Position numbers and translations under genes: made by a program. DNA of 64,000 nt from Candidatus Dormiibacterota bacterium. GTDB taxonomy: Bacteria; Chloroflexota; Dormibacteria; Aeolococcales; Aeolococcaceae. The stretch is taken from positions 1,551,253 through 1,615,252 of the forward strand of contig OY970307.1 in the NCBI GenBank assembly GCA_963716365.1. The letters are read 5' to 3'. A model generated the notes under the pieces. It saw only the letters and a list, made by a program, of their open reading frames with translations. It was not told where the DNA came from and did not search any database. Below, piece after piece: positions 4,800 through 64,000 of the stretch. Position 1 is the stretch's first letter. Every line of letters begins with the position of its first letter.

Positions 4800-6524
4800 T
4801 CAGGCGCCGACGGTCACTCCTGAAGCCTCGAGCCGATCGAAGACCAGTCGCACTGCCATCGATCCCTCACCGATCGCGGTCGCAACGCGCTTGATGGATC
4901 TGCTCCTCGCGTCGCCGACGCAGAAGACACCCGGCCTGCTCGTCTCGAGAAGCAGTGGTTGCTGATCGAGCGTGCTTGCAGGGACGTCACTGCCGGTGAG
5001 CAGGAAACCGTCTTCATCGGCCGCGAGCTGGCCGTTGAGCCATTGTGTGCACGGCATCGCGCCGATGAACGTGAAGAGGCCGCACGTTGGATGCGTGACG
5101 ATCTTACCCGAGCCGTTGTCGCGCAACGTGACGCCTTCGAGTTCCCCGTCGCCGAGCAGCCCGATGACCTCGGTTTTAGGAGCAACGGAGATGCGTGGGT
5201 CGCGCGCGATCTCGTCGAGCAGATAACGGGACATCGAGTGGCTCAACCCATCAGCGCGGATCGCAATGAGCACCTGGGTGCACCACCGCGAGAGAAAGAG
5301 CGCCGCCTGGCCCGCCGAGTTGCCGCCACCAACGATCACCGCCGGTCCACCGGAACAGGCCTGCGCCTCCATCTGGGTCGCCGCGTAGTAGACGCCGACG
5401 CTTTCGAAGTCCGCCAGATGATCGAGCGGCAGCCTGTTGTAGCGCGCTCCGGTGGCGATGATGACCGCGCGCGCGGAGATCACCTCGCCACCGTCGAGCG
5501 TCACGCGATGCGAATCGCCGGTCGACGACAGCGCGGCAGCCCCCGCGCCGAGCTTGATCCGCACCCCGAACTTCTCCGCCTGCAACGCCGCGCGTTCCGC
5601 CAACTCCTCGCCGGAGAGACCGGCGGGGAACCCCAGGTAGTTCTCGATGCGTGACGACGTGCCTGCCTGACCGCCGAGCGCCGTATTCTCGACGATGACG
5701 GTCCGCATCCCCTCGGACGCGCCGTACACACCGGCCGCGAGCCCGGCGGGACCACCGCCGACCACGAGCAGGTCGCAGTCGTCGGAGGCTGCGCTGGCGG
5801 ACGGTGCTGCGGTGAGACCGAGCGCGACCAGCAGCGCGTGATCGGTTGGGTTGGAAAGCAGTGCACCACCGGGCGCGATGACGAGCGGCAGGTCGTCGGG
5901 TGAGACATCGAGCTGGCGAAGCGTCTGCTCGGCCTCCGGCATGCTTTCGAGCTCGAGCCATCGAAAGGCGACGCGATTCCGGGCGAGGACATCGAGCAGC
6001 CGCCGCGTCTTGCGGTCGAACCGCGACCCCACAAGCGTAAGTCCCAGTCCCATCTGCGTCAACCGAACGTGGCGGAGCAGGAACGCCCGCAGGAGGTAGT
6101 CACTCAGGTCGGCTTCCTCGGCCATGATGGTCCGCACCTGCTCGATGGGAACTCGGAGGACGCGCCCGGGCTGCGTCGCCACCGCCGTCAGGAACACGCG
6201 CTGACCGGTCAGGAGCCCTTTCTCACCAAGGAACTCTCGCGCCCCGTACGAGATGATCACCTGCTCCTCGGGCTTGCCGTAGTGGTCGACGATGTCGACC
6301 GCGCCCTCGAGAATCACGACCAGGTCGTACGTGGTGTCACCGTCGGCAAACAGCAGATCGCCTTGTCCCACCTGGGATTCGTCGCCATACCGGCGCAGGG
6401 TCGCGAGCTGCAACTCACCAAGGAGCGGGCGCGCGTCTGCGGCATCGGGCGGCGTGACGATGGGCGCGCCACGGACCGGATCGTGACGGGTCGCTACTGG
6501 TGTTTCTACGTGGTGGTCCGACAT
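4800..6524 (-). CDS. cyclic-nucleotide-binding domain protein fused to a thioredoxin-reductase-like FAD/NAD(P)H oxidoreductase
   Basis: 574 aa. The N-terminus has a CAP/cNMP-binding beta-roll (GDLLFADGD...GEKGLLTGQRV). The C-terminal half is TrxR-like (VVGGGPAGLAAGVY, GGGNSAGQAALFL, FCVGDA). The canonical CATC redox disulfide is replaced by ACSGG. Confidence 0.8.
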   Translation of the reverse strand: MSDHHVETPVATRHDPVRGAPIVTPPDAADARPLLGELQLATLRRYGDESQVGQGDLLFADGDTTYDLVVILEGAVDIVDHYGKPEEQVIISYGAREFLGEKGLLTGQRVFLTAVATQPGRVLRVPIEQVRTIMAEEADLSDYLLRAFLLRHVRLTQMGLGLTLVGSRFDRKTRRLLDVLARNRVAFRWLELESMPEAEQTLRQLDVSPDDLPLVIAPGGALLSNPTDHALLVALGLTAAPSASAASDDCDLLVVGGGPAGLAAGVYGASEGMRTVIVENTALGGQAGTSSRIENYLGFPAGLSGEELAERAALQAEKFGVRIKLGAGAAALSSTGDSHRVTLDGGEVISARAVIIATGARYNRLPLDHLADFESVGVYYAATQMEAQACSGGPAVIVGGGNSAGQAALFLSRWCTQVLIAIRADGLSHSMSRYLLDEIARDPRISVAPKTEVIGLLGDGELEGVTLRDNGSGKIVTHPTCGLFTFIGAMPCTQWLNGQLAADEDGFLLTGSDVPASTLDQQPLLLETSRPGVFCVGDARSRSIKRVATAIGEGSMAVRLVFDRLEASGVTVGA

Positions 6525-13022: not shown

Positions 13023-13094
13023 AGCGGGAGACGGGGCTCGAACCCGCAACTTCAACCTTGGGAAGGTTGCACTCTACCATTGAGTTACTCCCGC
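13023..13094 (-). tRNA. tRNA-Gly (anticodon CCC)
   Basis: The minus-strand sequence GCGGGAG-TA-ACTCAATGGTAGAGT-GCAACC-TTCCCAA-GGTTG-AAG-TTGCGGGTTCGAGCCCCG-TCTCCCGC-T forms a cloverleaf with a 7-bp acceptor stem, a CCC anticodon in a 7-nt loop and a TpsiC GTTCGAG box. CCA is not encoded. Confidence 0.85.
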
Positions 13095-13202: not shown

Positions 13203-14153
13203 TCATTGCGGAGGCCTCCGCGACAACTCGCCGTCGCGCAGAACCTGCATGAGCCGGTCGTGGGCATCGGCGGGATCCAGGAGGTCGTAGTGGTGACGGA
13301 TCATCGCCTCGCTGCCGTGGCCGAGGATGCGTTCAACCACGATCGTGCTCTGGCCGCTCATGAGCATCCAGTGACACGCGCTGTGGCGGATCACGTTTGG
13401 GCTCACCGCGAACTGAATCCCTGCCTCGAGGGCGAGCGCGCCAACCATCTGACGCACACCAGGGACGGTGAGCACCTCGCGCTCTCCGGTGCGTCGGTCC
13501 CGACGCAGGCCGATGAACACCGGGTCGTCGTCCCCGCCTCGAGCAAGCGAGCGTATGCGAGCGAACATCTCCGGCGTGATCGGCACGTCTCGTTCGTCGA
13601 CCTCACTTCGGACACGCACGAAGTGGCGGAGCCCCTGCACGAGCAGATCGCCGTTGGTGATCGCAACGAGCTCGCCAGATCTCATGCCTGTGTCGGCGAG
13701 CAGCCGGATGATCACGCGGTCGCGTTCAGCCGCGGCGGTGCGCTCCAATAGCGCGATCTGTTGACGATCCAGCGTGTTTACCTTGCGTCCGGCCGGCTGG
13801 TGCAACTCGACCTTCGGCGCCGTGGTCGAGTGTTCCGCGGCGTACCAGCGCATCAGCTGGTTCGCAGCCTTCTTGTACGTCCACATCGTCGCGTCCGACA
13901 ACGGTTTGCCGACGCGGGTTGAGCGGCTGCAGAGGTCGGCGGCGAAGCGTTCCAGGGTGTCTTGGTTGATGCCGGCGGCACTCGCGATACCCTCGCGCTG
14001 ACACCACGGCAGCAACACAGCACGCAACGAGTACCCGTACGAGTGCTTGATGGTGCTGGGTTTCACACCATTCGACAGGCAGTGGACGATGTAGTTCTCG
14101 ATCTCGGTCGCCAGGTCGCTGCGCGGCGCCTTCAGAACCCGGGTTCCGGCCAC
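13203..14153 (-). CDS. tyrosine-type site-specific recombinase / phage integrase
   Basis: 316 aa with a GTG start. The catalytic R...HxxR...H...Y pattern is present (GMRSGEL, RHSACHWM, LGHGS, HHYD). Confidence 0.8.
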   Translation of the reverse strand: MAGTRVLKAPRSDLATEIENYIVHCLSNGVKPSTIKHSYGYSLRAVLLPWCQREGIASAAGINQDTLERFAADLCSRSTRVGKPLSDATMWTYKKAANQLMRWYAAEHSTTAPKVELHQPAGRKVNTLDRQQIALLERTAAAERDRVIIRLLADTGMRSGELVAITNGDLLVQGLRHFVRVRSEVDERDVPITPEMFARIRSLARGGDDDPVFIGLRRDRRTGEREVLTVPGVRQMVGALALEAGIQFAVSPNVIRHSACHWMLMSGQSTIVVERILGHGSEAMIRHHYDLLDPADAHDRLMQVLRDGELSRRPPQ

Positions 14154-39420: not shown

Positions 39421-39603
39421 CGCTGCAAGTAAGACCGCGGAAGTGGTGCGAAAGGTAACGCTCGGCGAAATTGTTGACTGTCGACGGTAATCGTTGGTCA
39501 AGGAATCTTTGTCCGTGCGCGATAGGGGGACGCACGCCTCGGTGGCGTATGTAGTACTGGGATGCGCGCTTCATTCGTGGCTATCAACAACGACGGGAGG
39601 GTC

Positions 39604-40143
39604 ATGACGACCGGTAGCGGCACTGGTCCGATCGGGCTGTCTGCTGCTGACCTCGATGACGTCTACAGGACCGAGATCCGCCGGCTCATCGGGCTCGGAA
39701 CAGTCCTCATGGGCAGCCGCTCCGCGGGGGAGGATCTTGCCCACGATGCCTTCCTGCTGGTGTTGCGCCGCGCTCAGCGCGACCCCGGCTACCTCCGATC
39801 GCCGGCATGGCCGTTGTTGCGAACCATGCTCGTCCGACTCTCGGTGCAGCGCCGCCGCTCGATCGCGCGAGAGGGCCGGCGCCTTGCTCGGTTCTGGGAG
39901 CCTGCGGTCACCGAATTCTGGGACCCCGACGCCGATCTCATCGACTGGCAGGCCACCCTCCGTACGCTCCCGCCACGGATGCGAGCGTGTGCGGTGCTCT
40001 TCTACGGAGAGGACCTGAGCGTCGCGGACGTTGCGCGCGAGCTCGGCTGCTCGCCGCGGACCGTCGAGCATCAACTGCATCGCGCGCGCCAGAAACTCGC
40101 CGCCACGCTCGGGATCAGCCGGAATGAGGAAGCGGGGCAATGA
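39604..40143 (+). CDS. ECF (sigma-70 family, group 4) RNA polymerase sigma factor
   Basis: Region 2 (EDLAHDAFLLVLRR) and region 4 (LPPRMRACAVLFYGEDLSVADVARELGCSPRTVEHQLHRARQKL). Its stop overlaps the next gene start (ATGA). Confidence 0.8.
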   Translation: MTTGSGTGPIGLSAADLDDVYRTEIRRLIGLGTVLMGSRSAGEDLAHDAFLLVLRRAQRDPGYLRSPAWPLLRTMLVRLSVQRRRSIAREGRRLARFWEPAVTEFWDPDADLIDWQATLRTLPPRMRACAVLFYGEDLSVADVARELGCSPRTVEHQLHRARQKLAATLGISRNEEAGQ

Positions 40144-52625: not shown

Positions 52626-54140
52626 TCACAGCGCGCCCACGGGGCGGCTGCGCACACGGTCGATCGCGTCGAGCCATGCCGCATAGCCTGCCGTTGGCCG
52701 GACCCCGGACCTCGCCGGCACGAAGCGCCGGCCAGCCTGCCAGGTTGCGGCCGCATCCTCGGGTCCGCTGACCAAGCCGGCGCCGACTGCCGCTAGCATC
52801 GCGGCGCCGAGCGCGGTCGCCTCGGCGGTCGCAGCTCGAGCCACCGGCATACCGAGCACATCGGCCTGGAACTGGCAGAGCGCGTCCATCGCGCTCGCGC
52901 CACCGTCAACACGCAGTTCCGTGAGTGCCTGCCCCGATGCGCGCTCCATTGCCTCCACCACGTCCCGGGTCCTGTACGCCATCGATTCAACGACGGCACG
53001 GACGACATGGGCACGGGTGACTCCGGCGGTCAGACCGAGCAACGCACCGCGCGCGTCGGGGTCCCACCAGGGGGCGCCGAGGCCGACGAGCGCTGGCACG
53101 AAGATGCAGCCGCGACTGTCCGGCACGGACTCGAAGAGCGGCCCGGCATCCGCCGCTGATGCGATGAGCCCGAGGCCGTCGCGCAGCCATTGCAGCGCCG
53201 CACCGGTGACGAAGATGCTGCCCTCGAGCGCGAAGACGTCATCACCGCCAATGCGCCAGGCGACGGTCGCCAGCAGGCCGTCGCCTGGGTCGGGCACCGC
53301 GCCGCCCACATTCACGAGGAGGAACGACCCCGTCCCATACGTGTTCTTGGACATGCCCACTTCCACGCAGGCCTGCCCGAACAGCGCAGCCTGCTGGTCG
53401 CCAGCGATCCCGGTGATCGGGACGCGAAGGCCGAGGAACGCCCCCGGGTCGGTCGCCGCGATCGTCCCGGCACTCGGGTGAACCGCCGGAAGGATCGCCG
53501 GCGGGATGCCAAAGAGCGCGCAGAGGTCCGCATCGAAATCGCCGCGCGCGAGGTCGTAGAGCAGCGTCCGGCTGGCGTTGCTCGCGTCGGTGGCAAACGC
53601 AGCGCCGTCGGTGAGGCGCGCGATCAGCCAGGTGTCCACGGTGCCCGCGCAGACCTCGCCACGTGCCGCATCCGCGGCGAGCGCCGGGTCCTCGCGGAGC
53701 AGCCACTCGAGCTTGGTGGCGGTGAAGTAGGGGTCGAGCAGGAGCCCGGTGCGCCGCCGGATCTCGGGCTCCTCACCGCGGGCGCGATGCTCGGCGCAGA
53801 TCGCGGCACTGCGCCGGCATTGCCAGACGATGGCGGGGGCGACCGGTTCGAGGGTCCCTCGGTCGAAGACCACGAGCGTCTCGCGCTGGTTGGTGATGCC
53901 GATCGCAACCGGCCGTGCGCCGGTCTCGCGGAGCAAACCGTCGCAGGCCGCGAGCACGGAACTCCAGAGTTCATTCGCGTCCTGCTCGACCCAGCCCTCG
54001 TGCGGATGGCTGACCCGGACGTCGCGATGCGCTCGCGCCACGATGTGCCCGTCGGGTCTCACGAGCAGGCAGGTCGTCCCGGAGGTGCCTTGATCGATCG
54101 CAAGCACCAGGGGTTCGCTCACGACCGGGGATGCTGACAT
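52626..54140 (-). CDS. glpK: glycerol kinase (FGGY family)
   Basis: AIDQGTSGT N-terminal motif, GTGSFL, and the full FGGY N- and C-terminal domains. Confidence 0.9.
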   Translation of the reverse strand: MSASPVVSEPLVLAIDQGTSGTTCLLVRPDGHIVARAHRDVRVSHPHEGWVEQDANELWSSVLAACDGLLRETGARPVAIGITNQRETLVVFDRGTLEPVAPAIVWQCRRSAAICAEHRARGEEPEIRRRTGLLLDPYFTATKLEWLLREDPALAADAARGEVCAGTVDTWLIARLTDGAAFATDASNASRTLLYDLARGDFDADLCALFGIPPAILPAVHPSAGTIAATDPGAFLGLRVPITGIAGDQQAALFGQACVEVGMSKNTYGTGSFLLVNVGGAVPDPGDGLLATVAWRIGGDDVFALEGSIFVTGAALQWLRDGLGLIASAADAGPLFESVPDSRGCIFVPALVGLGAPWWDPDARGALLGLTAGVTRAHVVRAVVESMAYRTRDVVEAMERASGQALTELRVDGGASAMDALCQFQADVLGMPVARAATAEATALGAAMLAAVGAGLVSGPEDAAATWQAGRRFVPARSGVRPTAGYAAWLDAIDRVRSRPVGAL

Positions 54141-54171
54141 AGGCGTCAGCCCCATGGACGTGCGCCGCGGT

Positions 54172-55224
54172 TCAGGCCGCTGAGGTCACCGGGGTCTGGG
54201 TGCTCGGGATGATTGCGAGCATGCGGTCGATCGCGCCGCGTGCCTGCGCCGCGATCACCGGATCGACCGTCACCCGCGGGCCCATGCGCTCGAGCGAGAG
54301 CGCGACCTTCTCGAGCGTGATCTTCTTCATGTAGGGGCAGACCGCGGCTTCGGACGCAGCGAGGAATCGCTTGCCGGGGGAGTCGAGCTCCATGCGATGG
54401 ATGATCCCGACCTCCGTCGCGACGATGAACGTGCTCGACGGTGAAGCGGCGGCGCGCCGGACCATCCCCTCGGTGGAGGTGACCACGGTCGCGGGGCCGC
54501 GAAGGTCGCCGGACGACATGCGATACAGCGTCGACGACGTGCAGCCGCACTCCGGATGGATGAGCAGCTCCGCGTCGGGGTTCTCGCGACGCATCGCGTC
54601 GAGACGCTCCGGATGGATGCCGGCGTGGACGTGGCATTCGCCCATCCAGATGTGCAGCTTTCGCCCGGTGACTCGCTCCAGGTGCGCTCCGAGGAACATG
54701 TCCGGGCAGAACAGGATCTCCCGATCCGCGGGGATGGAGCGGATCACTGCCTCGGCGTTCGACGACGTGCAGCAGTAGTCGGAGAGCGCCTTCACCTCGG
54801 CGGTCGTGTTGACGTATGACACAACGACTGCACCGGGGTGCTGTCCCTTCCACTCGCGCAACTGGTCCGCGTCGATAGTGGCCGCCAGCGAGCATCCGGC
54901 CTCGAGATCAGGCAGCAATACGGTCTTCTGCGGCGACAGGATCGCGGCGGTCTCGGCCATGAAGTGGACGCCGCAGAACACGATCACCGAGGCATCGGTG
55001 GCCGCCGCCTGTTGCGACAGCCCGAGCGAGTCGCCGACGAAATCGGCGATGTCCTGCACTTCAGGACGCTGGTAGTTGTGGGCCAGGATCACCGCGTTGC
55101 GCTCGCGCCGCAAGCGTTCGATCCGGTCCAGCAACCCGGTCCGGTCCTCCCTCTCCACGTCAGTCGCCGTGTTGCGTTCTGCTGTGATCACCCCGCCACC
55201 TGTCCCCGACGCCGAGGGCTTCAA
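54172..55224 (-). CDS. nadA: quinolinate synthase A
   Basis: AHNYQ, VHFMAET and CPYMK motifs. 350 aa. Confidence 0.9.
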   Translation of the reverse strand: MKPSASGTGGGVITAERNTATDVEREDRTGLLDRIERLRRERNAVILAHNYQRPEVQDIADFVGDSLGLSQQAAATDASVIVFCGVHFMAETAAILSPQKTVLLPDLEAGCSLAATIDADQLREWKGQHPGAVVVSYVNTTAEVKALSDYCCTSSNAEAVIRSIPADREILFCPDMFLGAHLERVTGRKLHIWMGECHVHAGIHPERLDAMRRENPDAELLIHPECGCTSSTLYRMSSGDLRGPATVVTSTEGMVRRAAASPSSTFIVATEVGIIHRMELDSPGKRFLAASEAAVCPYMKKITLEKVALSLERMGPRVTVDPVIAAQARGAIDRMLAIIPSTQTPVTSAA

Positions 55225-55228
55225 GACT

Positions 55229-55247
55229 TTAGGTCAGATTGACCTAA
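55229..55247. promoter_or_regulatory. perfect palindrome TTAGGTCA-gat-TGACCTAA immediately upstream of nadA (candidate NrtR-type / NAD-regulon operator; GT-N7-AC core)
   Basis: An 8-3-8 perfect inverted repeat, AT-rich in a 70% GC background, 5 to 25 nt upstream of the nadA start codon. Confidence 0.45.
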
Positions 55248-55276
55248 GCAAAGTATAGCAGGGTGTCCCGTCCGCG

Positions 55277-55810
55277 TTAGAGGATCTGCGGGGTCGGGCT
55301 CGCACTCGGCGGAGTCAGGTCGGAGAAGTCGGTTTCCTTCCAGCCGGAGCCGGATCTCACGTACTCCTGGAGGAGGTTCAGCTGCTGCCCCACAGAGGCG
55401 TCCTGATGGTCGACCTTGCCGGCGGCGTTGAGGTAATCGTCCTGCACCAGCGTCATCGTCACATTGAGGATGAGCCGGCTGTCGTTGCAGCCGGCCTGGA
55501 CGACCGTCAGCTGATCGAGGTGGTCGACCTCGCGTTCGGTGAATCCGTGTGCGACGAGCTGTTGCTGCAGGTAGGTGGTGATGGTCGTGAACGCGTTGCC
55601 GGTGGTCACAGCCGAGAGGCCCGTGTGGTGCGGGTCGAGCTCGATCGCGTTGAGCTGGGCGTCGACGCTTGTCCAGATCTGCGTGGCCTGAGACTGCGAG
55701 ACGCAGCCCGTCTTTGCGGTTGACGTCCCCTGCGCGGGCGGCGCGCAGGATGCGAGCATCGCGGCCACGGCGCCCGCAATGGCCGGCGTCACAACGCGGC
55801 GGGATTCCAC
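55277..55810 (-). CDS. putative lipoprotein
   Basis: Start trimmed to GTG 55810 (VESRRVVTPAIAGAVAAMLASC: n-region, h-region, lipobox LASC). Confidence 0.5.
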   Translation of the reverse strand: MESRRVVTPAIAGAVAAMLASCAPPAQGTSTAKTGCVSQSQATQIWTSVDAQLNAIELDPHHTGLSAVTTGNAFTTITTYLQQQLVAHGFTEREVDHLDQLTVVQAGCNDSRLILNVTMTLVQDDYLNAAGKVDHQDASVGQQLNLLQEYVRSGSGWKETDFSDLTPPSASPTPQIL

Positions 55811-62157: not shown

Positions 62158-64000
62158 TCAGCGATAGTCGTGCGAACCGCTGAAACCACTCTGGTCGGGC
62201 GGCGTGCCGGGGTGCGCGATCCGGTCGCCGTCCGGGGTCAGCGCGGTCACCTGCTCGACGAGCACGTTGACCCGGCCGTGCTCGACCTGGAGCCGTCCGT
62301 CGACCATGAGCAACGGGTGGCGGGCCACCTCGAGCGTTCGCTGCACGACCGCGGGCCGGAACACGAGGTCGCAGTGCGCATCCTCATCCGCCAGCGTGAA
62401 GAAGCGGAAGCCGCGGGCCGTCGACGGCTGCTGGCGGGTGATGACCAGCCCGGCGACCCTGATGCGCGTGCCGTCGGCACCGTCGCGCACCTTGCCGAGC
62501 GGGACGCAACCGAGTGCATCGAGCTTGGCGCGCATGAACGACACCAGGTGCGGGCCCGTGCTCACCTCGGTGAGCGCGTACTCGGTGTTCACACGGGTGC
62601 GCTCGTCCATCTCCGGCAGGACCGGCGGTGTCGCGGGCAGTGCCATCAGTGGCGGCACGGGGTCGGCGCCGGGATCGCGCGGCGTGTGCGGCGCGTCGCC
62701 GAGGCGGTTGCCGGCGATGGCGCCGCTGCCGCGCGGCGGACCGGTGACGACTGGGGCGGCGGTGTCCTCGGGAGCGAGCTTCGTCCGTGAACGCCTGCGC
62801 GGAGGCAATCCCTCCTCCACCTCTTTCAACTCCCAGAGCAGTTGGCGCCGCGACCGTCCCGCGGCGACACCGTCGAACGCGCCGACACGGATCAGGTTCT
62901 CCATGGCGACGCGGGACAGGAGCGTGTGCTTCCAGAACGCGGCGACCGACGTGTTGGCGCCGTCGTTGATCGCGTCCTCGCACGCCGCACGCGCGGTCGG
63001 GCCAAGCCCGTGCACGTAGGCGAACCCGAGCCGTATCGCGAACGGCTGCTTGGCATTGTCGACGGCCTCGACGATGCAGCGGGCACGGCTCCGGGTGACG
63101 TCGACGGGCAGGACGCGGACGCCGTGGCGCTTGACATCGTCGACCAGGACCGACGGATGGTAGAAGCCCATCGGCTGCGCGTTGAGCAGCGCGCACGTGT
63201 AGTGCGCGGGATACGTCAGACGCAGCCAGGCGGTCTCGTATGCGGTGCGCGCGAAAGCGGCCGCGTGTGATTTGCAGAAGCCGAACTCCGCAAAGCCGGC
63301 GACACTCTTGAAAATCTGTTGCGCCACCTCCTCGCTGAGGTCGTGCTCGATGCAGCGGCGGATGAAACCATCGCGCAGCTCCTCCATCTCGATACGCGAG
63401 CGGTGCCGGTTCATCGCCCGCCGGAAGCGGTCCGCCTCGCCCGCGGTGTAGGCGGCAATCTCCATGACGATGCGCAGGATCTGCTCCTGGTAGAGGACAA
63501 CTCCGCATGTTTCTGACAGGATCGGCTCCAACTTGGGATGCAGGTAGGTCACCGGCTCGAGGCCCTGGCGACGGCGCAGGTAGGGATGCACGGCATCGCC
63601 CTGGATCGGGCCCGGACGGATGATCGCCACCTGCACGATGAGGTCGTTGAAGCAGCGTGGCTGGGACTGCCAGAGCGACTGCTGTTGCGCACGCAACTCG
63701 ATCTGGAAGAGCCCGATGGTGTCGACCTTGCAGATGACGTCGAAGACGCGCTGGTCATCGAGTGGCAGCTCGTCGAGGTCGGGCCGTGTGCCCGTGGTCT
63801 GCTCGATGAGTTCGAGGCACTCCGCGATCGCCGAGAGCGTGCGCAACCCGAGCAGGTCCATCTTGATGAGCCCGAGGTCCTCGACATCGTCCTTGTCGAA
63901 CTGCACGACGACGCGGCCCGGCATGGTCGCGCGCTCCACCGGCACGACGTCGACGAGCGGCTCGCCGGTGACGAGCATGCCGCCCACATGGATACTCAGA
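62158..64000 (-). CDS. DNA polymerase III alpha-subunit family protein, C-terminal two-thirds (probably error-prone DnaE2/ImuC); N-terminus lies beyond the window
   Basis: Fingers/palm-adjacent conserved blocks (VQVAIIRPGPIQG, GVVLYQEQILRIVMEIAAYT, GFCKSHAAAFA, MGFYHP) and a C-terminal OB-like domain. There is no tau-binding extension, which fits DnaE2. The ORF is still open at position 64000. Confidence 0.8.
   Translation of the reverse strand, partial: LSIHVGGMLVTGEPLVDVVPVERATMPGRVVVQFDKDDVEDLGLIKMDLLGLRTLSAIAECLELIEQTTGTRPDLDELPLDDQRVFDVICKVDTIGLFQIELRAQQQSLWQSQPRCFNDLIVQVAIIRPGPIQGDAVHPYLRRRQGLEPVTYLHPKLEPILSETCGVVLYQEQILRIVMEIAAYTAGEADRFRRAMNRHRSRIEMEELRDGFIRRCIEHDLSEEVAQQIFKSVAGFAEFGFCKSHAAAFARTAYETAWLRLTYPAHYTCALLNAQPMGFYHPSVLVDDVKRHGVRVLPVDVTRSRARCIVEAVDNAKQPFAIRLGFAYVHGLGPTARAACEDAINDGANTSVAAFWKHTLLSRVAMENLIRVGAFDGVAAGRSRRQLLWELKEVEEGLPPRRRSRTKLAPEDTAAPVVTGPPRGSGAIAGNRLGDAPHTPRDPGADPVPPLMALPATPPVLPEMDERTRVNTEYALTEVSTGPHLVSFMRAKLDALGCVPLGKVRDGADGTRIRVAGLVITRQQPSTARGFRFFTLADEDAHCDLVFRPAVVQRTLEVARHPLLMVDGRLQVEHGRVNVLVEQVTALTPDGDRIAHPGTPPDQSGFSGSHDYR

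Follow-up and report, generated by a model that had tools for sequence, protein, structure and literature searches.

A palindrome conserved at the predicted nadA promoter of Dormibacterota is a probable operator and resembles NrtR-family sites

A perfect palindrome lies upstream of the quinolinate synthase gene nadA in this Dormibacterota genome, which raises the question of whether it is a regulatory site for NAD biosynthesis and, if so, which protein reads it. The window, that is, the whole 64-kb stretch of DNA analyzed (64,000 nucleotides), carries TTAGGTCAgatTGACCTAA at 55229–55247, exactly where the preliminary description had reported a 19-nt palindrome of 8-3-8 layout. TTAGGTCAGATTGACCTAA is 19 nt in length, with perfectly matched 8-nt arms and a 3-nt spacer, and reads TTAGGTCAatcTGACCTAA on the minus strand, the strand of nadA. 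Other copies of the 19-mer with up to three mismatches were absent from the window. Perfect 8-3-8 palindromes occur four times in the window (at 32972, 43590, 55229, and 57930), and block shuffles of the window contained 2.3 on average and 8 at most. A perfect palindrome of this layout is by itself within chance expectation, and the significance of the site therefore comes from its conservation. Of the four, only the palindrome at 55229 is AT-rich (A or T at 12 of 19 positions), and only this one was placed in an intergenic region. It had been introduced as an AT-rich site in a 70% G+C genome; the AT-richness holds, whereas the G+C content is 66% for the window and 59–60% around the palindrome.

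The product of nadA scored 414 bits against the NCBIfam model NF006878 (cutoff, 294). The longest nadA reading frame begins with a TTG codon at 55224, 5 nt from the palindrome. However, the closest NadA homologs are 335–339 aa long, an identical NadA is present as a 339-aa gene call on contig_12266 of ENA ERZ25039482, and at 55191 orthologs have either GTG or ATG, preceded by AGGTGG. The string 'aggtggcggg[ag]tg' is kept in most of the nadA orthologs. The homolog lengths, the gene call, and the GTG/ATG alternation after AGGTGG point to GTG 55191 as the start of nadA, with the dyad 38–56 nt upstream of it (Table 1). The palindrome had been said to abut the nadA start, which applies only to the longest reading frame.

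Table 1. Positions of the palindrome and of the genes and predicted signals around it in the window
Feature	Position	Strand	Remarks
glpK-like glycerol kinase gene	52626..54155	-	16 nt downstream of nadA; FGGY_N, FGGY_C
nadA, quinolinate synthase	54172..55191	-	339 aa; GTG start; PF02445, E = 1.8e-116
Shine-Dalgarno-like AGGTGG	55196..55201	-	4 nt ahead of the GTG start
Probable operator	55229..55247	.	perfect dyad TTAGGTCA-N3-TGACCTAA
Transcription start zone (predicted)	55241..55246	-	6-9 nt downstream of the -10, within the left arm
Extended -10 TGcTATACT (predicted)	55252..55260	-	TG 55260-55259, TATACT 55257-55252
Putative lipoprotein gene	55277..55792	-	171 aa; upstream of nadA; gene call

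In the window, nadA is not followed by nadB or nadC. The glpK-like gene downstream of it scored 568 bits against NF000756 (cutoff, 498), and the pairing of nadA with an FGGY kinase gene is retained in L002, L085, L087, and L088. The glpK-like gene is probably co-transcribed with nadA and, if so, would be under the same operator. As NadA consumes dihydroxyacetone phosphate as a substrate, a functional link between nadA and the glycerol kinase is conceivable. In the divergent locus L086, a PNP_UDP_1 gene sits between nadA and the FGGY kinase gene. On the other side of the palindrome, 17 nt separate the stop of the lipoprotein gene from the TG in the −10 element; the 171-aa product of this gene had no match in Pfam or NCBIfam and is not a regulator. 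Pfam annotation of approximately 40 window reading frames revealed no other NAD genes, and the only transcription factors among them were a TetR protein (28255–28968) and an ECF sigma factor (39562–40143).

Conservation of the site was evaluated by scanning one genome per species (185,579 GTDB species) with TTAGGTCA-N3-TGACCTAA, which yielded 82 matches. Approximately 38 of these are on Dormibacterota-type contigs of 67–71% G+C, with a single match each. The exact site is immediately upstream of nadA in all 36 Dormibacterota-type contigs that reach this gene; two others (L029 and L037) end at the site, so nadA is not covered. The NadA homologs are 78–96% identical and, where named, belong to Candidatus Dormibacteraeota or Dormibacteria. 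Further copies had been expected at other NAD genes; instead, each Dormibacterota genome has one exact copy, at nadA every time, and no second site with up to three mismatches was found in approximately 411 kb of Dormibacterota DNA. Several contigs of 68–70% G+C with the same site (L045, L049, L024, L064, L032, L037, and L009) are labeled as Saccharimonadales, Acidiferrales, Gemmatimonadales, or Chloroflexi MAGs. A near-full Dormibacterota-type nadA is present in L009, L024, L045, L049, and L064 (NadA 82–95% identical), L032 holds only 79 residues of NadA, and L037 ends at the site; these contigs look mis-binned or mislabeled.

The other 44 matches are outside Dormibacterota, most in unrelated contexts. 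For 20 of the matches outside Dormibacterota, the flanks were miscellaneous (MFS, MatE, antitoxin, integrases, and lectin), and only the match in Nonomuraea was beside nrtR. In an Actinomycetota MAG (L005 1222–1267), the 19-mer lies inside a perfect hairpin of approximately 45 bp; in an Oscillospiraceae MAG (L021 2024–2458), it occurs three times, 208 bp apart; and in Planctomycetales bacterium 10988 (L031, L042, and L063), it is part of a 29-bp palindrome, AGGACTTAGGTCAAnnTGACCTAAGTCCT, that is present in three copies, one next to an integrase gene.

A footprint was then derived from 37 non-identical orthologous nadA upstream regions, anchored on the site, whose NadA proteins are 77–97% identical. 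Information content was 1.88 and 2.00 bits per position in the two arms and 1.30 bits in the spacer, compared with 0.62 bits in the 5′ UTR and 0.30 bits in the DNA more than 20 nt upstream. The only invariant blocks in these regions are the extended −10 element (TGnTATACT) and the palindrome. The spacer is ATC in 28 regions and AAT in 6, with ATT, GAT, and GCG once each. The left arm reads TAAGGTCA in the divergent lineages L085 and L087 and has decayed in another (L086 9959–9977, TATGGTAGgcgTGACCTAA). L001 is without the lipoprotein gene, yet the promoter and the dyad are retained.

The TATACT hexamer is present in 36 of the 37 regions, and 35 of these 36 also carry TG one base ahead of it; the hexamer is separated from the dyad by 3 nt in 22 regions and by 4 nt in 13, that is, in 35 of 37. 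No −35 element is conserved across the 37 regions, and a two-hexamer promoter scan returned no match, as would be expected of a promoter of the extended −10 type that has no conserved −35. We therefore predict that TGnTATACT acts as the nadA promoter, and the start zone in Table 1 follows from the distance at which start sites usually lie from a −10 hexamer. The fixed spacing between the −10 element and the dyad would place the start site within the left arm, a classical position for a repressor. The preliminary description had put the palindrome over the nadA promoter or ribosome-binding site; the promoter assignment is retained as a prediction, with the conserved −10 element alongside, whereas the ribosome-binding site is not overlapped, the GTG start being 38 nt downstream. 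We consider it highly probable that the palindrome is a functional operator controlling nadA.

The palindrome was compared with the operators of NrtR regulators, which the original account describes as palindromes of approximately 21 bp with a 9-3-9 layout and a GT-N7-AC core (PMC2330246). Written as TTAG-GT-CAGATTG-AC-CTAA, the dyad has GT at 55233–55234 and AC at 55242–55243 between perfect 8-nt arms; the GT-N7-AC core noted previously is thus present, and both the palindrome and its geometry agree with that description. Metagenomes were scanned for nrtR genes, and 78 of the best 80 loci were used for core counts. GTCA-N3-YGAC was found 61 times in the 13.2 kb upstream of nrtR and 35 times in 398.5 kb elsewhere in these loci, which corresponds to densities of 4.64 per kb for the 160-nt upstream stretches and 0.088 per kb elsewhere, and at least one core was present in 48 of the 78 loci. 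The consensus at the 78 loci was TTAnnGTCA-N3-TGACnnTAA, symmetrized as TTATCGTCA-N3-TGACGATAA. Moreover, a Nonomuraea gene encoding NUDIX and NrtR_WHD domains has an exact TTAGGTCAgctTGACCTAA 15 nt upstream, and near-copies (ATAGGTCAttcTGACTATA, TCAGGTCAatcCGACCATT, and TCAAGTCActgTGACCATA) are present in the nrtR intergenic regions of Saccharothrix and Nocardiopsis (L090 and L089). The enrichment, the exact copy, and the near-copies show that the palindrome agrees in sequence with sites beside nrtR genes. Its proposed kinship with actinobacterial NrtR operators is supported in part, by a 53-fold enrichment of the core at nrtR and by the Nonomuraea copy; on the other hand, the host belongs to Dormibacterota and not to Actinobacteria, and the NrtR operator of Mycobacterium differs.

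In the nrtR loci L091–L170, L066, L089, and L090, the dinucleotide that precedes GTCA in the adjacent sites varies with two residues of the segment DPxNFxRK in the winged helix. Residues R and H go with TC (57 of 64 half-sites), R and Y with CT or TT (10/10), S and R with AG or AA (9 of 12), and A and H or P and R with TG. This correlation between segment and flanking bases resembles a small recognition code for NrtR proteins and could be used as such. The Dormibacterota dyad has AG-GTCA on both arms, the same type as the half-sites of S..R-type NrtR proteins. From these arms and the residue correlation, an NrtR of the S..R type with a DPSNFRRK-like recognition segment is predicted.

The dyad shares with operators of actinobacterial-type NrtR proteins (PF00293 and PF21906) a length of approximately 21 bp, the GT-N7-AC and GTCA-N3-TGAC cores, AT-rich outer positions, and the AG-GTCA subtype found beside S..R-type nrtR genes (Nonomuraea, Saccharothrix, and L091); the predicted overlap with the promoter of a NAD-biosynthesis gene would be a further likeness. 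It differs in that its outer TTA stands one base off the position it has in TTAnnGTCA, that there is a single site per genome, and that no nrtR is near it, whereas in the known nrtR loci the sites adjoin nrtR itself with no nadA nearby. Indeed, no nadA was found in the flanks examined of the nrtR loci with this core (the 80 metagenomic loci, Nocardiopsis, Saccharothrix, and Nonomuraea). A comparable NrtR regulon, Actinobacteria-2b, is listed as of unknown function (PMC2330246). The gene divergent from S..R-type nrtR (L090 1417–3914; L091 and L104) encodes a conserved protein of approximately 558 aa that had no match in Pfam or NCBIfam, and in Saccharothrix a PNP_UDP_1 phosphorylase gene follows it.

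The NrtR operator of Mycobacterium smegmatis, an actinobacterial NAD operator characterized by experiment, is GTTTTCGA-N7-TCGAAAAC, of 23 bp, between the divergent nrtR and nadABC (PMC6800001). The two systems are alike in having a single palindrome at the promoter, a predicted one in Dormibacterota, through which de novo NAD synthesis (nadA) is, or would be, controlled; in M. smegmatis, however, the regulator is divergently adjacent and autoregulated (PMC6800001), whereas the Dormibacterota nadA has no nadB or nadC after it. The mycobacterial (Actinobacteria-1b) NrtR box was accordingly rejected as an identity for the site, given its different sequence and the lack of an adjacent nrtR and of nadB and nadC. 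A unique site does not refute NrtR, because a single-operon NrtR regulon occurs in Shewanella oneidensis, where the regulator adjoins its target, the salvage operon prs-nadV (PMC2330246).

The mechanism that we favor is a moderately probable one, in which a dimeric NrtR-family repressor, encoded elsewhere, would act at the extended −10 promoter of nadA and probably of the glpK-like gene. Invariant arms, a free spacer, and an 11-bp center-to-center distance are characteristic of sites for dimeric helix-turn-helix proteins. The dyad would span roughly −3 to +16 relative to the predicted start, and a dimer bound to it would keep RNA polymerase from binding or from forming an open complex; quinolinate would then not be made de novo when the effector signals NAD sufficiency. 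The likeliest reader would be an NrtR-family protein with a Nudix-like sensor and a winged helix, a repressor that ADP-ribose or a related NAD metabolite may free from the DNA. In vitro, ADP-ribose releases NrtR from DNA (PMC2330246).

The regulator gene was searched for in the 64-kb window, in L088, and in 4–10 kb around nadA in approximately 40 Dormibacterota loci. Neither tblastn with the Nonomuraea NrtR nor a hidden Markov model built from 120 NrtR homologs found a match in the window or in these Dormibacterota loci, and a Nudix-box regular expression had no match in the six-frame translation of the window. That no regulator gene adjoins the palindrome, as had been stated, is borne out by Pfam as well as by both NrtR searches. 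The search for NrtR homologs returned Actinobacteria only. None of the best 80 metagenomic nrtR loci, a small part of the family, was Dormibacterota-like by a tetranucleotide classifier trained on the syntenic loci, which is a rough guide only. Since no NrtR gene was found in the window or the Dormibacterota DNA searched, we infer the identity of the regulator from its site.

Two further candidates for a Dormibacterota nrtR were considered and set aside: L171 on the classifier result (P = 0.05), and L174/L175 on the integrase/helicase gene context alone. The NrtR-like gene of L174/L175 (L174 1933–2748, L175 1694–2509) encodes a NUDIX domain and an NrtR winged helix of the DPSNFRRK type. Its neighbors in the cluster are an integrase gene, genes for DEAD and ResIII helicases, and one for an ADP-ribosylglycohydrolase fusion, so that the cluster resembles a mobile or defense island rather than a metabolic operon.

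Another family of regulators (GntR-type, Rrf2, TetR, or an undescribed NAD-responsive factor) could read a GTCA-N3-TGAC dyad as well, and we regard an operator of this kind as possible, if rather unlikely. The absence of NrtR from the Dormibacterota DNA searched is in its favor, and the core is short enough to be common to another helix-turn-helix family; GntR-family operators likewise have GT...AC cores. For Rrf2 in particular, NadA is an Fe-S enzyme, and Rrf2 genes lie 1–4.6 kb upstream of nadA in the divergent loci L086 (5365–5829) and L087 (8002–8442). However, neither the window nor any of the remaining loci examined contains the gene, L087 has no second site near its Rrf2 gene, and in L086 the left arm has decayed despite the presence of Rrf2; with no occurrence elsewhere and no site near its own gene, Rrf2 was dropped as the reader. 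In its 9-3-9 layout, AT-rich flanks, and half-sites of the AG-GTCA subtype, the dyad agrees with nrtR-adjacent sites, which argues against another family in general.

The consensus sequences of the other NAD regulators compared do not match the site either. The NiaR cores, TGT-N4-ACA (type I) and ACA-N5-TGT (type II), are absent from it (PMC2330245), and the enterobacterial NadR sequence TGTTTA-N6-TAAACA does not match. NadQ (COG4111) is similar in its 9-3-9 layout, in controlling nadABC, and in having a winged helix homologous to that of NrtR (PMC5343134). Its operator, ttATRCTCannntGAGYATaa, reported from Proteobacteria (PMC5343134), has a CTCA/TGAG core in place of GTCA/TGAC and different flanks, and was rejected.

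Two further scenarios, which together we find rather unlikely, concern the reader of the site: either Dormibacterota encode no NrtR and an undescribed NAD-responsive regulator has converged on GTCA-N3-TGAC, or an NrtR of the subfamily that is of unknown role in Actinobacteria has been recruited phylum-wide as a dedicated single-operator switch for nadA-glpK.

It is very unlikely that the dyad functions instead as an RNA element, namely an 8-bp hairpin at the 5′ end of the nadA mRNA that affects stability or translation or forms part of a riboswitch. From the predicted start site, most of the dyad would be part of the transcript, and in the fold of the 66-nt leader (−22 kcal/mol), the dyad forms a hairpin. 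However, this fold is no better than those of shuffled sequences (z = −0.86), the predicted leader is only approximately 50 nt long, and the hairpin lies approximately 20 nt from the Shine-Dalgarno sequence and does not sequester it. No Rfam family, including the NAD+ riboswitch (nadA motif), matched 54900–55600 at E values up to 10. Moreover, the arms are invariant in sequence with no compensatory changes, and the sole arm variant, that of L085 and L087, breaks a pair and is uncompensated.

A chance palindrome or plain promoter-proximal sequence with no regulatory role is extremely improbable, even though perfect 8-3-8 palindromes occur in the window at about chance frequency and the matches outside Dormibacterota, mostly in unrelated contexts, do not exceed the approximately 140 expected by a hand estimate that assumes uniform base composition (596 Gb / 4^16), because the site is invariant where NadA has diverged and the flanking non-coding DNA is scrambled, because approximately 38 independent genomes keep the same distance to the −10 element and nadA, and because the divergence of flanks and NadA also argues against recent transfer of one cassette.

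Dormibacterota are widespread in soil and permafrost; to our knowledge, they have no cultured members, and no transcription-factor regulons have been described for them. In the dyad, this group has a clean cis-regulatory signal for NAD biosynthesis that extends across the phylum. Under the favored NrtR reading, it also yields a prediction for the missing regulator, a Nudix and winged-helix protein with a DPSNFRRK-like recognition segment. Regulation of this kind would otherwise be expected for nadA and belongs to a known type of NAD regulation, none of which has been described in the phylum.

Several other features of the window were recorded. A tRNA-Gly(CCC) gene (13023–13094, minus strand) adjoins a phage-type integrase gene (13203–14153, minus strand) and is a likely integration site. 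Few reading frames with the high third-position G+C usual for this genome were found at approximately 19.8–21.8 kb and 30.9–39 kb. A 574-aa fusion of a cyclic-nucleotide-binding domain with a pyridine-nucleotide-disulphide oxidoreductase is encoded at 4800–6524 on the minus strand. At the right edge of the window lies a DnaE-type polymerase gene (62158–63999, minus strand); in a related contig (L001 1–4061), an IMS (Y-family polymerase) gene precedes the DnaE-type gene, an arrangement that resembles an error-prone repair cassette.
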